Virus record (IMG/VR): IMGVR_UViG_3300047409_000726
Span: 16,265-80,264 of that record
DNA: 64,000 bases
Origin: a virus
Direction: 5' to 3' (one strand)
Shown: piece by piece, positions 3,273 to 63,925 of the stretch
Layout: each line of letters opens with the position of its first letter
Numbering within the stretch: the first letter of the stretch is position 1
Notes under the pieces: generated by a model
What the model saw: the letters and a program-made list of their open reading frames with translations, nothing else
What the model was told of the DNA's origin: nothing
The model's database searches: none
Program-made: the position numbers and the translations under genes

Positions 3273-3866
3273 CTGCGGGCTTTTCCACTGCATGTGGTTG
3301 CTGGCGTTGGCCCAGCGCCGATCAAAGTAGTCTTTGACGAAGCCGAGGTGACCGCCTTTGCCGTTGCTAACGCACCCGGTGACGGAACATCGACAACCTT
3401 TTCCGTGTGTGCTGTCGTGGAAGAACGATGCCTTTTTACACTCGATGCAGTTGAAAAATTGGACGGAGCTCCATTCGTTCGTTGTTGGTGAGTAACCAAA
3501 ACCGAAGATGTGGTCGTCAGGGAAGAAAAAAGTTTCGGAATCGTCGTCGAACTGATCGCTGTAGTGGAGGGTTGCTCCGGCGATCACGATCTCTCCTTCC
3601 CAACCGGAGTGAAGGATTTTGTTTTTGTGTGGTTTCAGTTCTTCGAACGTTGTCGACGATTTGATCTCAACTAACACCGGAGTTTTTAGCTTCAGGATGA
3701 AGTCTGGGATGTAGCCGTTCAGATCGATCGGCTCGTAGTCCCATGCCCACGTTAGGGCGTCGAACATCGCCGCCCATCGTGCTTCGATGCGACTCCTGAA
3801 TTGAACGCCTTCGTATTTTGTAGGAATGCCTTTGTTCATGGTGTTTTTATTCGTGCGACGAACCAC
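3261..3866 (-). CDS. PD-(D/E)XK-family nuclease-like protein
   Basis: FRSRIEARWA, YEP, YIPDF, VEIK motifs. Confidence 0.7.
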   Translation of the reverse strand: MVRRTNKNTMNKGIPTKYEGVQFRSRIEARWAAMFDALTWAWDYEPIDLNGYIPDFILKLKTPVLVEIKSSTTFEELKPHKNKILHSGWEGEIVIAGATLHYSDQFDDDSETFFFPDDHIFGFGYSPTTNEWSSVQFFNCIECKKASFFHDSTHGKGCRCSVTGCVSNGKGGHLGFVKDYFDRRWANASNHMQWKSPQVTQ

Positions 3867-22882: not shown

Positions 22883-23328
22883 GACCGACTTGGCCCGAAA
22901 CTTGGATGTCGATCGCGCGTGTCATCGCCGAGCGATCCTACGACCCTCGCCTCAAGGTCGGCGCGATCATCGTCACGAGCGACAACACACAGATGCTCTC
23001 CGGCGGCTACAACGGTAACTACGCCGGTGGCCCACACGAGCACGAGTCGCCTGAGCCTGGGCAGAGTGGGTTTATCCACGCCGAGGTGAACGCGCTCGTG
23101 AAGCTCGACTTCAACAACCCGAAAGAGAAACACCTGTACCTCACGCATTCGCCGTGCAGAATGTGCGCAAAACTCATCATCAACGCCGGCATCAAGCGTG
23201 TGGTGTACGGCGAGGCGTACCGAGACCCGAGTGGTGTGAAGCTCTTGCAGGGGGTTGGCGTCGATACGTATTCGTTTGAAGATGCTGTTTGGGCTGCGAA
23301 GAATCCGGGTGCTGGGCCGTCTCGATGA
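22879..23328 (+). CDS. dCMP deaminase
   Basis: KVGA, GYNG, HAEVNA, SPCRMC. Confidence 0.9.
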   Translation: MRPTWPETWMSIARVIAERSYDPRLKVGAIIVTSDNTQMLSGGYNGNYAGGPHEHESPEPGQSGFIHAEVNALVKLDFNNPKEKHLYLTHSPCRMCAKLIINAGIKRVVYGEAYRDPSGVKLLQGVGVDTYSFEDAVWAAKNPGAGPSR

Positions 23329-23856
23329 AAATTCTTGTGCCGTTTTGGTCTTGTGACGTTCCCGTACCGGTGTGCTCGTCAAGATCACGTGACGGGTTGC
23401 GGTATGCGGTTGGACACTATTTTTGGAAGGACAGATTGAAATTTATTCACCATCGCATACCGTGTACACCGTGAAAATCCACCGCTCCACCGGCTACATT
23501 CACATCGATCTCTCCGGGGCCGAGGCTGCGGTGCTCTTCGAAGAGCTCGAGAACGTCCGCGGCGGATCGAAGCTCCCGAAGGTTCGTCAGGTGTGCGAGG
23601 GGCTCAAGGAGTCGCTCGGGCTCAATGCTCTGATGGCCGTGTCGGAGTCGTACAGGCGGAAATACGCCCCCAGGAAGACACTATCGCTCGTCGTCAACGA
23701 CGCGCCACGTGCCGATCACGCTCAACACGAAAAGCACGTGAGCCACGATCGCGGTGGCGATGGCGACGTGAGTACGAGGGACGCCACTGACGACCCACGC
23801 GAATGCGAGCGTGAGCCCTTGAACGATCGCTAGCCCCGTCAGGCGTGTGGCGCGGC

Positions 23857-24084
23857 TCATGCCTCAGGTGCTCCGGGGATCTTCCGGTTCGTGATTATTT
23901 TGAGCGCGATCGAGAGCAGCGGGCCCTCGATGTGTTTCGGTACCAAGATGCCGAGTTCGCGCTGTGCCCGATCAAGCGCAGCGCCGAATGTTAGGTTGTT
24001 GTCGGCCGTGAGAATGTCGATGACCCTCTCGAGCACCGGTGCGCAGTGTCGCGCGTCGCGTAGCGCTTCTTCGACGGCTGTCAC
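23857..24084 (-). CDS. Hypothetical protein, last gene of the RAMP operon
   Basis: GTG start overlaps the upstream TAG. Confidence 0.5.
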   Translation of the reverse strand: MTAVEEALRDARHCAPVLERVIDILTADNNLTFGAALDRAQRELGILVPKHIEGPLLSIALKIITNRKIPGAPEA

Positions 24085-24578
24085 TAGTCGTCCCCGTTGA
24101 ACAACACGACCTGCGCAGCCTGCGCGCAGGCGTCCTGAAGCGATTCGCCTTGAAAGAACCCCTTCACTTCGTAGCCGTCGTTGGAGAGGCTTGCCTCGAA
24201 CATCTTGATCTCTCGCTTGCCTTCGGCGTTGACGCCCATCTCGATGGATCGGACGCCGGCCTCGCGTGCACGGAGCCACCGGTCGAGCGCTTCGAAGATC
24301 CGCACAGCTCCCTCGCCCTCGGCTTGGCGTATCTCGGCTTCTCGTGACTCGACCTGCGCGCGTACGGGCACGATGGTGACCGTTTTCATACGGAAGATGA
24401 GCTTACACGCTAGGTCGAGGTAGGCGCTCTCAGGGTTCGCTCGAACGTATAGCTCGTCGATCTCGTTGATGGTGTCGCGGAGCGCTTCTGCGAGCTCGTG
24501 AATCACGTCCTCGGACGTCATGGGAGCGGGGCGAGGGGGCGAGGAGTGTTTCGAGCGGGTAAGCGGGGCGTCGTTCAT
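24084..24578 (-). CDS. Hypothetical protein downstream of the pentamer tracts
   Basis: 164-aa ORF with RBS AAAGGA. Confidence 0.65.
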   Translation of the reverse strand: MNDAPLTRSKHSSPPRPAPMTSEDVIHELAEALRDTINEIDELYVRANPESAYLDLACKLIFRMKTVTIVPVRAQVESREAEIRQAEGEGAVRIFEALDRWLRAREAGVRSIEMGVNAEGKREIKMFEASLSNDGYEVKGFFQGESLQDACAQAAQVVLFNGDD

Positions 24579-24604
24579 CTTGGGTTCCTTTGTGTGTAGA
24601 AACG

Positions 24605-24786
24605 GTCCTTTGGTTTGCTCGGCTGTGCGCAGCGATGCGTAGCCCGGCGGCGCGCCGATTCGGGTGGCTTTGCTGAGCGCTGCTTTGTTGAGCGGTGCGT
24701 GGCGCTGCGGTGCCGAGACTTGCCGAGCATTGCTTTACAACGCGACGTTGCGCCATGCTGAGCACCGTACCGCTCAGCGGAGTTTG
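24605..24786 (-). ncRNA. Putative guide RNA, tract A (34 phased 5-nt units plus handle)
   Basis: G at every fifth + strand base 24617-24782 (33/34), GC in 26/34; handle gtcctttggtttgc. Confidence 0.75.
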
Positions 24787-24830
24787 TTGGGTTTGAAAAA
24801 AAGCTGTTCGGCACGGGGTTCGTTGAAAGT

Positions 24831-24947
24831 GTCCTTTGGTTTGCTTGGCAGTGCGTCACGACGCGGGGCAGGGTCGCGCGACGATCCGCTTCCCGGTGCA
24901 CTGATCTGCTTGACCGTGCTGGGCACAGCGCCGCACTGCGATGAGGG
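24831..24947 (-). ncRNA. Putative guide RNA, tract B (21 units plus handle)
   Basis: GC in 14/21 phased positions from 24843; same handle as A. Confidence 0.72.
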
Positions 24948-24987
24948 TTTTGAAAAAGTTGTTTGTGCGCGGGTTGTGCGAAAAGTG

Positions 24988-25074
24988 TGACTTTGATTTG
25001 CTGGGCTGAGCACGACTGAGCTTCGCGTCGCGTCGCTGGGCCGGGTTTCGCGAGGCGCTGCGTCGCTGGGTTTC
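24988..25074 (-). ncRNA. Putative guide RNA, tract C (15 units plus handle)
   Basis: GC in 12/15 phased positions from 25000; handle tgactttgatttgc. Confidence 0.72.
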
Positions 25075-25078
25075 TTTT

Positions 25079-25723
25079 CTAGGCCACCTTCCGTTTCATC
25101 GCAGCCGTCCCGTCGACGCAGTCCCATGCGACGACGTGGAAGAGCCCAAACGGCCCGCGCTTCTCAGGGCGGAAGGCGCCGATACCTAGTTGTTCTCCGG
25201 CCTCGGTGAGGAGCTGTCTCACGAACGCCGGATCCATGAGGTTCTCGTTGATGCGGATCGTGCACTTCAACGTCCAGCGTTCGATGCGTGGACGGTGAGC
25301 GAGCAGTGCGCCTTTCGTGCTTGGGTTGACGACCCGGCGACTGTCCACCTCGTAGGTCGTGATGCGCGTTTTCCGGTCTTCATTGTAGAGCGGTGCAAGC
25401 TCGTCGAGAACGAGCACCGCGGCCGGCACGCGATACTTCATCGACTTGCGGGTGCCCTTCTCCTTGTGGTTGCCGCCGGCTTCGACGATCGCGCGTTGTA
25501 CACCGGTGCCAGGGAACACGAGTGGGGAGTCGAGCTTCCCGTTCTCGCGGTAGCAGCTCTTCTCGGCGATCTCTCGCGGAGTGAGTTGCTTGACGGCTGT
25601 GATAGATGGCCGAGTGCCTGGGCCACTGCCGCCGGGTACGTTTTCGGCTGCTTCTGTTCCAAACGCCGCCATAAGTAGCGGCATCGTTCCTTCGATCCAA
25701 GTTTCTGTGTATTGAAAAGACAC
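25079..25723 (-). CDS. Stand-alone RAMP/Cas7-like RNA-binding protein
   Basis: N-terminal strand IEGTMPLL; FPGTGVQRAI resembling RAMP IPGSSLKGAL; C-terminal Gly-rich loop LGIGAFRPEKRGPFG; RBS AAAGGAG 7 nt before GTG. Confidence 0.75.
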   Translation of the reverse strand: MSFQYTETWIEGTMPLLMAAFGTEAAENVPGGSGPGTRPSITAVKQLTPREIAEKSCYRENGKLDSPLVFPGTGVQRAIVEAGGNHKEKGTRKSMKYRVPAAVLVLDELAPLYNEDRKTRITTYEVDSRRVVNPSTKGALLAHRPRIERWTLKCTIRINENLMDPAFVRQLLTEAGEQLGIGAFRPEKRGPFGLFHVVAWDCVDGTAAMKRKVA

Positions 25724-25747
25724 TGAGATTCTCCTTTGGTTGAAAAT

Positions 25748-25889
25748 GAGCTTTGGTTTGCGCGGCTGAGCGTGGCGATGCGGTGCGCTGCGAGGCGTAG
25801 ATCTGCTGAGGGCCGCTCTGTTGTGCGGGGGCGCGCTAGGCGGGGCGGCGATATGCTTTGCCGGGGCCTGCCCTGCGGCGCGGTGAATT
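25748..25889 (-). ncRNA. Putative guide RNA, tract D (26 units plus handle); variable positions spell a rhomboid motif
   Basis: G at 26/26 phased positions 25760-25885, GC in 19; handle gagctttggtttgc. Confidence 0.78.
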
Positions 25890-26434
25890 TAGGTGAACGA
25901 CCTTCCTCTCTCGCCGATGGCGTTCGCGAAGAGTGCAGCAACGACGCCGACGAACAGGCCGCCGATGTGGGCACCGACACTGACGTCGCCACCGTTGCCG
26001 GTTAGTGCCTGCCAAGTGCTGACAGCGCAAAAGGCGAAAGCGAATCCGATGAATCGGCGGTCGACCGCTACGGAGTACGTGACCAGGCCGCAGACAGCCC
26101 CGGAGGCGCCTACCATCGGGATTGAAGAGCCTGAAGCTACGATAATGTGGAGAGCGGCTCCGGCGACCGCTGCGAGGGCGTAGAGGCAGAGGAACCGAGC
26201 GCCCCCGATGACCCTCTCGACCAGGCTGCCGAAAACGGCCAAAAAGGCCATGTTACAGCCCAGGTGAACGAGGGTCCTAGGGTCGTGCAGGAAGGAGTAG
26301 GTGAGGAGCGAGCCCAGGCCCGGATGGGCCGGAACTAGGCCGAATTTCTCGCAGACCGGCATCCCGCCACTCGAGAGCTCGAGGGCGTAAACGGCCGCGT
26401 TCAGCGTCACGAGAAGGAGGGTCACGAGGGGCAT
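25889..26434 (-). CDS. Rhomboid intramembrane serine protease
   Basis: TYSFLH, HLGCNM, catalytic GASG, AHIGG; multiple TM segments. Confidence 0.92.
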   Translation of the reverse strand: MPLVTLLLVTLNAAVYALELSSGGMPVCEKFGLVPAHPGLGSLLTYSFLHDPRTLVHLGCNMAFLAVFGSLVERVIGGARFLCLYALAAVAGAALHIIVASGSSIPMVGASGAVCGLVTYSVAVDRRFIGFAFAFCAVSTWQALTGNGGDVSVGAHIGGLFVGVVAALFANAIGERGRSFT

Positions 26435-26458
26435 ATGGGGTAGACGGATACCATACGA

Positions 26459-26521
26459 GGGTATTCAAGGTCAATCATTCTTTAGACGGCTGTTGACGTT
26501 GAATACCCGGCGTGGTAGGGT
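26459..26521. promoter_or_regulatory. Divergent sigma70-like promoter pair built on a 16-bp inverted repeat
   Basis: gggtattcaaggtcaa (26459-26474) and ttgacgttgaataccc (26493-26508); + strand TTGACG-N17-TAGGGT. Confidence 0.6.
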
Positions 26522-26946
26522 CCGTCTGCTCTGCCATGACCTTCACAGGAGACCCAATGCCCAAACGCCCAAACGGTCGCTATTCGGGCGTCGAACCGAC
26601 CGGCACCCCCGCGGCGGTCGACCGGGCGCTCAAGAAGAACTCGAGGGACGACATGCGGGGCTACGACACGGACGCCCACGCTATCGCGAAGGTGCTCGTT
26701 CGCCACTACGGCGACGAGGCCGATGCGGTGCTCAAGCGCACGTTGGAGCTCCTTGGGGACGCACGGAGAACGAAGCGATGACCGACCCACGCAAGCCTCA
26801 AACCAAAGACGGCGCCGTGGCCTTCGTGTCCGCCGTGCTCCGAAACGAGCCAGCGCTTCAGTCGCCGGACTTCAAGGTCGCGATGGATCTCAGCGAGTGT
26901 TTCGACATTCGCGCGAAGGACTTACTCGAGTACCGAAAGGGGATGG

Positions 26947-27378
26947 TTGAAAATGGCCGCTGAAGAAAAACACACGTTCTCTTGCATAGGCATCACCAAG
27001 CAGCTCGAGGCGCTCACGAAACTCGCCGGCATCGGGCGGGGCATCGTGGTCACCGAGGAATTAGCTAGCAAGTTGGCTGACCGGCGCAATCGACGCGAAA
27101 AAATGGATCTCATCATCGACGAGCTTTGGCGCCGGTACAAGTACGCGGCAGATCCAGTGATCGACGGCGCCTGCCTGTTCGTCGTAACGCTCGCCCAAGG
27201 GTTTGGTATTCGGTGCCGTTTCACGATGGCACGCTACGGCCGAGCAAGTTGGACCCTCTTCGTCGCGTACGAAAACGAAGAGGGGCTCTGGCAAAACATC
27301 AACGTGCTTCGACAGGAAACAGCTCAGGTGCCAAACGAGCTCGTGATGGGGCCGATCCCAGGAGACGACGTTACATGA
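26947..27378 (+). CDS. Probable catalytically dead paralog of the transglutaminase-like protease
   Basis: RREK..IIDE..YAADPV, FGI, AYENEEGLW align with RRQK..ILDE..YIADPV, IGI, AFEDDLGEW of 48439..50082. Confidence 0.6.
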   Translation: MKMAAEEKHTFSCIGITKQLEALTKLAGIGRGIVVTEELASKLADRRNRREKMDLIIDELWRRYKYAADPVIDGACLFVVTLAQGFGIRCRFTMARYGRASWTLFVAYENEEGLWQNINVLRQETAQVPNELVMGPIPGDDVT

Positions 27379-28500: not shown

Positions 28501-28558
28501 CGCTCACCGCTTCATCCCCGGCGCGGCGCTCACCGCTTCATCCCCGGCGCGGCGCTCA
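28501..28558 (+). repeat. 26-bp exact tandem duplication
   Basis: cgctcaccgcttcatccccggcgcgg x2 plus cgctca. Confidence 0.9.
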
Positions 28559-63037: not shown

Positions 63038-63925
63038 ATGTCTAAAATCATTGGAAGAGGACGTTACGCGACCGATACGTACCCGCAACCGTCTTTCGGA
63101 TCTGGATCTGGCACCGGTACGACGGGCTCAACGGGCCCAACCGGTCTACAAGGAGTCGGGATCGGATTAACGGGGCCGACAGGGCCAACAGGACGAACCG
63201 GAGCAAGCGGCCCCACTGGTGTCGCCGGAGCTGCAACGAACACCGGTGCGACCGGTGTAACGGGACCGAGCGGGCCCAGCGGGAGCACCGGAGCAACAGG
63301 ACCTACTGGCCCCACCGGCGTTTCTGGTTCTGCAACCAACACCGGCGCCACAGGCCCAACGGGATCAAGTGGTCCTACTGGTACCGCTGGTGGTGCAGCC
63401 AACACCGGCGCCACAGGTCCGACTGGACCAAGCCCAGGATCAACCGGACCGACAGGAAGCACGGGACCGACAGGATCGACGGGCAGCACGGGCCCAACAG
63501 GCTCAACAGGCCCGACAGGGCGAACCGGATCAACGGGACCCACCGGTGCGGCATCGACAGTCACGGGACCCACAGGTCCAACGGTTTTTGCGACAGAGAC
63601 GCGCGCCAACAAAAACATGGCTGCGTCTACGACGGTCAATGACGGCGATCTCGCTTGCGCCACGGCCGTCGCGTTCACTCCCGCCGCCTCTTCTACGAAC
63701 GGCGGCTACATAGGCGTCGGCATAAACCCTGCGTTCCCGTACAACGTCGGCGACGGAACGAAAGTAAACGTCGACTGCTACTTCTCCGGTGACGCCGGAG
63801 CTACAGCGCGCTCGCTGAAAGACGTCATCGCGGGAGATTTGCTGTTTTGGAATCAGAGCGTTGCCGGGTTCAACCTGGACGCAGCCACCGACGTGGTCAG
63901 TTTCTTCTATTCGGTAATCGTGTAA
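63038..63925 (+). CDS. Collagen-like fibre protein
   Basis: Long G-X-T triplet region, shared N-terminal tag, globular C-terminus. Confidence 0.85.

Follow-up and report, generated by a model that had tools for sequence, protein, structure and literature searches.

This locus raises the question of which rhomboid protease gene a short-repeat guide is aimed at when it lies next to a rhomboid gene that it does not match. A soil phage carries, immediately downstream of its own rhomboid gene, a tract of five-base repeats in which two bases of each of 15 units, read in order, specify the catalytic-serine motif of a rhomboid, and the coding sequence so specified differs from that of the adjoining gene. 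The DNA that was analysed (the window) is 64,000 nucleotides long and comes from a virus record of 80,264 bp (G000) that is complete and carries terminal repeats. All coordinates below are those of the window unless a contig is named.

The arrangement belongs to a class of systems that is already published, in three 2026 preprints. In VIPR (Viral Interference Programmable Repeat), known for example from Escherichia phage SUSP1 and a Pseudomonas fulva prophage (bioRxiv 10.64898/2026.04.26.720920; structures in 10.64898/2026.04.26.720927), Vipr protomers coat a vrRNA in which GGY/NN pentamers precede a conserved 3′ tail (10.64898/2026.04.26.720920). When the NN bases read double-stranded DNA, each unit passes over one base, usually the codon wobble; the guides are directed at competing phages and satellites, and transcription is repressed upon binding (10.64898/2026.04.26.720920). 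Natural targets were called at an NN identity of at least 80%, and no self-target reached that level (10.64898/2026.04.26.720920). For some guides the self-match scores are lower than the non-self scores, which avoids autoimmunity (10.64898/2026.10.15.759431). The elements of the present locus that bear directly on the question are listed here.

25889-26434, minus strand: own rhomboid protease gene, 181 aa (Pfam Rhomboid PF01694, E 4e-19)
26075-26119, minus strand: own-allele site homologous to the guide target, codons 106-120, PMVGASGAVCGLVTY; it encloses 26078-26119
25813-25887, minus strand: vrRNA D, the 15 tail-distal (5′) units, whose NN dinucleotides specify P-L-V-G-A-S-G-A-I-F-G-L-L-A-V
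25763-25812, minus strand: vrRNA D, the ten tail-proximal units, reading in target sense CG GA TG AT GT CT AG TA CT GA
25724-25762, minus strand: vrRNA D, the conserved 3′ tail, GCAAACCAAAG..TTTTCAAC, which runs into the ribosome-binding site of vipr

The decoding of tract D was settled by an exhaustive trial of dinucleotide choices, registers and strands, in which the criterion was eight of 14 agreements with AG opposite TCC. The series identified in this way is the plus-strand dinucleotide at every fifth base from 25813: CC CT GT GG GC AG GG GC AT TT GG CT CT GC. An earlier note on this DNA had proposed that two bases of each pentamer are paired and that every third base of the target is skipped, with the skip on the wobble position, and this rule is the '1-nt skip rule' of VIPR (10.64898/2026.04.26.720920). 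If the vrRNA is placed on the minus strand, its canonical NN positions coincide exactly with the dinucleotides of that first reading. Two other choices were tried and rejected. Reading the dinucleotide that follows each GC on the plus strand gave at most 5/14 matches anywhere in the rhomboid, and this register is wrong because the vrRNA is minus-sense; the third variable base, treated as a read base, agreed with the third codon position in 5/14 units by hand count, which is the chance level. The GC core is kept in ten of the 15 tail-distal units and is degenerate (CC, TC or AC) in the other five. In total tract D comprises 24-25 units, within a GC-periodic region at 25735-25895. Judged by its sequence, tract D encodes a vrRNA, in the same orientation as the rhomboid and vipr.

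The remaining elements of the locus lie downstream of tract D in the direction of transcription.

25079-25723, minus strand: vipr, encoding a 214-aa single-RRM RAMP (Cas7-like) protein
25004-25073, minus strand: vrRNA C repeat tract, 14 units (GC-periodic region 24985-25085)
24842-24946, minus strand: vrRNA B repeat tract, 20-21 units (GC-periodic region 24843-24948)
24616-24785, minus strand: vrRNA A repeat tract, 33-34 units (GC-periodic region 24597-24787)
24084-24578, minus strand: 164-aa ORF downstream of the vrRNA array, without a Pfam match

The 214-aa protein has 31 homologues, and a profile of 22 Vipr family members matches PDB 36pp_D, 'SUSP1 Vipr protein' (E 5.8e-8). An AF2 model built on the homologue alignment has a pLDDT of 82.5, and its top Foldseek matches are Csm3/Cas7 backbone subunits of type III and type VII CRISPR complexes (E 2e-7, TM ~0.5). 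By homology and predicted fold, the protein is a Vipr RAMP. Within the entire 80-kb genome, GC at a period of five in register is confined to four places, namely the tracts that flank vipr, one upstream (D) and three downstream (C, B and A). Across the four tracts the core positions are G in 82% and C in 95%, with A or C in the first position of the core. The core in the clade of the window is thus [A/C]GC instead of GGY; a YNNNG-type variant is listed in 10.64898/2026.04.26.720920. All four tracts end in the same tail, GCAAAyCAAAG..TTTC in gene sense.

Tracts A, B and C, which served as negative controls for the search with D, had no exact match in IMG/VR for their 5′ 10-11 units, and no target for them was found in G000 or in the two phages described below (G001 and G002). 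A match of tract A to window 3803-3843 reached 21/28 with a non-canonical decoding and was treated as chance. The 164-aa ORF is 90% identical in G002 and 30% identical in an 86-kb metagenome contig (L042). A role as a VIPR accessory gene is improbable, because its homologue in L042 lies near a rhomboid gene where neither a vipr homologue nor GC-periodic tracts were found. Scans of the window with Rfam and for tRNAs found nothing, and a promoter and terminator scan of 23000-27200 gave no promoter-like site and terminator-like sites at the level of shuffled sequence. Among the sequencing runs listed as containing the stretch, none is recorded as RNA. The short divergent region between the start of the rhomboid gene and the plus-strand genes holds a 16-nt inverted repeat (26459-26508; 94% complementary, arms 18 nt apart) that looks like an operator.

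A search of IMG/VR with a gapped pattern of 12 units returned one contig, G001 (109 kb, CheckV complete). The rhomboid of this phage agrees with the guide in 15/15 units and 30/30 informative bases, in frame and with every skip on the third codon position, and the three units beyond the 12-unit search pattern are among those that agree. Its product is 182 aa long and 43% identical to the own protein. G001 has no vipr and only a few distant proteins in common with G000. The rhomboid of the sibling phage G002 scored 25/30, or 26/30 in a window shifted by one unit (0.83-0.87), and that of L042 scored 25/30. A metagenome scan with the rhomboid protein returned mostly generic rhomboids, with L042, which is without tracts, as the sole member of the family.

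Several smaller observations concern these two contigs. The L042 rhomboid (L042:3001-3430) is open for only 141 codons and stops shortly after the GASG helix, so the gene may be frameshifted or truncated; the homologue of the 164-aa ORF lies ~0.9 kb downstream of it, with no vipr homologue or GC-periodic tracts between. A 143-aa plus-strand ORF (26947-27378) adjoins the own rhomboid in the window, and a homologue ~50% identical to it is found at G001:88722-89006, inside a minus-strand operon led by the rhomboid. This homologue is among the genes that a roadblock at the G001 rhomboid would silence.

The strength of these matches was judged against 300 shuffles of the informative bases of the guide, the best site anywhere in each genome being scored. 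The maxima of the shuffled guides in the genomes were 18-23, and the scores of the true guide were 30 in G001, 25 in G002 and 21 at the own allele. The G001 and G002 sites thus exceed the null, and the own site falls within its range. Shuffled 15-unit guides attained at least 21/30 somewhere in the genome in 13% of trials. With all 24 decodings applied to the 64-kb window in six frames, no score was above 21/28, and this value arose at two independent places.

The own rhomboid has a complete catalytic set (H57xxxN, Ser111 in GASG and His156 in AHIGG). Its codons at 26078-26119 on the minus strand read CCG ATG GTA GGC GCC TCC GGG GCT GTC TGC GGC CTG GTC ACG, or PMVGASGAVCGLVT, as the earlier note gave them. 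The agreement counted there between codon positions 1-2 and the decoded series, 8/14 dinucleotides, is exact (21/28 bases), and the catalytic serine codon was correctly described as TCC opposite a guide unit that reads AG (25838-25839). Against the full 15-unit guide the own allele agrees in 21/30 informative bases (0.70) and 8/15 units. The mismatched units are 2, 6, 9, 10, 13, 14 and 15 (7/15); the mismatch at unit 6 is a synonymous serine switch, TCC versus AG, in which both bases are lost, and the others correspond to conservative amino-acid changes. The own rhomboid is the best guide site in G000, yet it remains at this score, and no self-target of 0.8 or more was found. At 70% identity, which is no better than that of random sites in its own genome, the own rhomboid should escape silencing. 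The proposal that the guide aims at the homologous rhomboid of another phage while the resident copy is spared is thus supported in silico by the scores of 30/30 in G001 versus 21/30 in the own gene.

The same proposal included self-avoidance, and this part stood only in the sense of sparing. When the own allele was compared with that of G001, identity at the site (0.70) was higher than in the rest of the C-terminal half (0.52), so that there was no signature of focused escape. In the sampled rhomboids about half of the serine codons are AGY and about half are TCN. Because the two serine codon families are used about equally and the site is more conserved than its surroundings, there is no sign of selected immunity: the match is at background (0.70), and no mark of specific selection was found. 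A selective reason for the sequence of the own allele would be a further assumption.

The best explanation, to which we give a probability of roughly 70%, is that D is a VIPR guide against the rhomboid of rival phages and that the own copy is spared. We infer that D is expressed and processed, and that it acts by binding and repression. Tract D would be co-transcribed with the rhomboid and vipr, from the minus strand. By analogy with SUSP1, Vipr protomers, one per pentamer, would coat the vrRNA, hold the core and present the two variable bases, and the resulting filament would read double-stranded DNA with two bases on and one off. The 15 tail-distal units would correspond to the coding strand of PLVGASGAIFGLLAV, the catalytic-serine helix, in the small rhomboid family of this phage group, and binding at the PLVGASGAIFGLLAV region would block transcription of the rhomboid operon of the rival. 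In G002 this operon would include the phage's own VIPR locus as well, provided that the rhomboid promoter drives both. The resident rhomboid, which differs in 7/15 units including TCC for the AGY serine, would escape silencing.

If the real target were instead the GlpG-type rhomboid of the host bacterium, the phage would supply a guide-resistant enzyme in its place ('silence-and-replace'). The own allele keeps all catalytic residues and could therefore substitute for such an enzyme. Cellular rhomboids with the 10-unit core (VGASGAIFGL, with an AG serine and a CT leucine) were found in >120 species-representative bacterial and archaeal genomes at 22-27/30, and many of them pass 0.8. The guide is thus aimed at a conserved consensus motif of the rhomboid family, which accounts for part of its match. 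The cellular motifs typically end in GL(L/F)G(A/V), whereas the guide specifies GLLAV, as in G001. The exact 14-unit pattern was found in no cellular genome among 185,579 species, whereas the phage rhomboid matches in 15/15 units, and the published VIPR targets are mobile elements. A host target is therefore unlikely.

Other data bear on whether the tail-distal block of D works at present, or is a decaying remnant or blocked by the mismatch next to it, in which case its resemblance to a rhomboid would have no present function. The best score of the tail-proximal units in G000, G001 and G002 was 14/18, which is the null level, and no target was found for them there. An IMG/VR match of nine tail-proximal units to L134 (44% GC) was taken as chance, being a single match, out of frame and without extension. 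When all 25 units are counted, full-length identity is 0.72 to G001 and 0.66 to G002, below the 0.8 criterion, although the RNA ends used in this count are predicted only. Because the SUSP1 R-loop grows from the tail end to the 5′ end, mismatches in the tail-proximal block could keep the guide from engaging, unless processing of D removes the obstacle or the clade differs from SUSP1 in this respect. The five degenerate cores among 15 and the length of D (24-25 units versus 9-16 in characterised vrRNAs) point in the same direction. Against this, 30/30 informative bases are intact with respect to a gene of a living phage, which would be unexpected for decay, and the published callers tolerate internal degeneracy and up to 40 units. 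A block without present function is accordingly considered improbable.

The alternatives of the earlier note, that the guide weakly autoregulates the rhomboid-vipr transcript through the phage's own rhomboid or is a drifted former self-derived sequence, are very unlikely: the own site is the best match in its own genome and lies upstream of vipr on the same strand, where a roadblock would feed back on VIPR expression, but its score is within reach of shuffled guides and below the level used for natural targets, at which the published surveys contain no self-targets, and the perfect foreign target disfavours both versions, the residual similarity being that expected from homology of the catalytic motif.

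A guide against the rhomboid of rival phages can also be considered in the light of the mosaic structure of the locus. In G000 and G002 vipr is 99% identical, while the rhomboid is only 72% identical, and the differences are distributed in blocks, given here as G000 versus G002.

Rhomboid 5′ half: 85-97% identical
Rhomboid 3′ half and D repeats: 50-65% identical or unalignable
D tail and vipr: 83-100% identical
Tracts C and B: replaced in G002 by one different tract
Tract A: nearly identical, and likewise nearly identical in a soil contig of run X2

This 12-kb soil contig has the same pattern of shared and replaced parts as G002; the comparison drew on contigs from four DNA sequencing runs and is informative on the shared parts. 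The 3′ half of the rhomboid and the D repeats were exchanged together, and the guide and the resident target allele therefore lie in one exchanged patch. As far as the alignment goes, the patch would fit a guide and a resistant allele that are inherited together.

A more far-reaching version of this reading is possible but doubtful. The guide and the guide-resistant allele (rhomboid 3′ half and D repeats) would form one recombination cassette, and siblings with different cassettes would silence each other's rhomboid-led operon, in a poison-antidote form of allelic exclusion that would diversify the region coding for the catalytic site; the rhomboid would be targeted because it heads the arming operon of the rival. 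In G002 the rhomboid is directly upstream of the phage's own VIPR locus and on the same strand. A roadblock at the G002 rhomboid might thus silence the VIPR system of the rival as well, provided that the rhomboid promoter drives this locus, and such an effect would agree with the published guides against other VIPR systems.

Two further features were noted in G002. An extra ORF of ~110 codons lies between tract A and the 164-aa ORF (L001:4990-5330) and is absent from the window. Directly after the rhomboid stop codon and ahead of the tract in the position of D (D′), the sequence GCAAAACTAAG (L002:4529-4560) resembles GCAAAyCAAAG, and GCAAAACTAAG may be a remnant of the tail of another guide.

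In terms of its general organization, the locus is similar to VIPR of SUSP1. Both have a small single-RRM RAMP protein, that of the window being homologous to SUSP1 Vipr, and guides on both sides of vipr. In both, the guides are built of pentamers that combine a constant core with two hypervariable bases, and they end in a conserved 3′ tail. Both also skip one base on the wobble, have a target in another phage and have no self-target at 0.8. In contrast to SUSP1, the core here is [A/C]GC rather than GGY and the tracts are 14-34 units long rather than 9-16. A pseudoknot is not evident in the tail, which consists of a short AAAG..CTTT mini-hairpin motif. There is no recognisable vap gene, and some published types are arranged otherwise in this respect as well. 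Of the units of D, the 15 tail-distal ones alone have a target, and the guide adjoins a diverged homologue of the targeted gene that belongs to the carrier itself.

The vrRNA-targeting vrRNAs of SUSP1-family phages, including the solo guides of VIPR-null phages (10.64898/2026.10.15.759431), offer a second comparison. As in those cases, the target class is also present in the carrier, the self score is lower than the non-self score, and in G002 the targeted rhomboid is directly upstream of the VIPR locus of the rival. The targets of those guides are vipr or vrRNA genes, whereas the target here is the catalytic motif of a rhomboid, in a gene for an accessory protein; and unlike the carriers of solo guides, the carrier here keeps a full VIPR system. 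The backbone of class 1 CRISPR-Cas complexes (Cas7/Csm3 on crRNA) is similar in its RAMP fold and in a filament that presents a guide interrupted by protein contacts. It differs in its period, 6 nt with five read bases compared with 5 nt and two read bases here, and the present locus has no cas genes and no CRISPR repeats, its guides being hard-wired in the phage.

The natural targets of VIPR have so far come mainly from phages of E. coli and Pseudomonas. This locus adds a soil-phage clade with a variant core, the catalytic motif of a membrane protease as a natural target, a carrier that keeps a homologue of the target at a background-level match, and a mosaic patch that links guide to allele. 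The three natural alleles, at 100%, 83% and 70% identity, provide a test bed for the tolerance of VIPR to mismatched units. A further question is whether phages with such guides disarm sibling phages through a block on the operon in which the VIPR system of the sibling is encoded.

Vipr homologues were found in 37 viral contigs, and period-5 tracts lie beside the gene in 36 of them. In the related loci the tracts are of GGC-NN or GG type, on the gene-sense strand, and often form arrays with conserved linkers. When 68 guides from these loci were run against ~0.55 Mb of viral DNA, no window reached 19/20 or more; the shifted-register control for this search was inflated by the constant G and was hence discarded. 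Beside the gene of L036, neither GC- nor GG-periodic tracts were found. Nine loci (L007, L019-L021, L025, L027, L028, L031 and L039), most of them lower in G+C, are without GC-periodic tracts beside the gene and have instead GG at every five bases, in gene sense, just downstream, and also upstream in L027, L028 and L031. This suggests cores of GGT type in these nine loci.

The arrays themselves vary in their architecture. In one contig (L037:4793-5360) nine units of ~54 nt each consist of about ten GGCNN pentamers and TCAN, and in another (L026:4588-4877) five units are separated by GGTTCGT. The 40-nt linkers of L006:4570-5139 form a hairpin with compensatory changes between copies, and L033:4573-5046 has single tracts of 38 and 52 pentamers. 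Elsewhere in the window, the top-scoring tandem repeat is a perfect 26-nt repeat present in 2.2 copies (28501-28558), and repeats with a period of 9/27 at 63430-63519 are possibly a collagen-like Gly-X-Y coding stretch.
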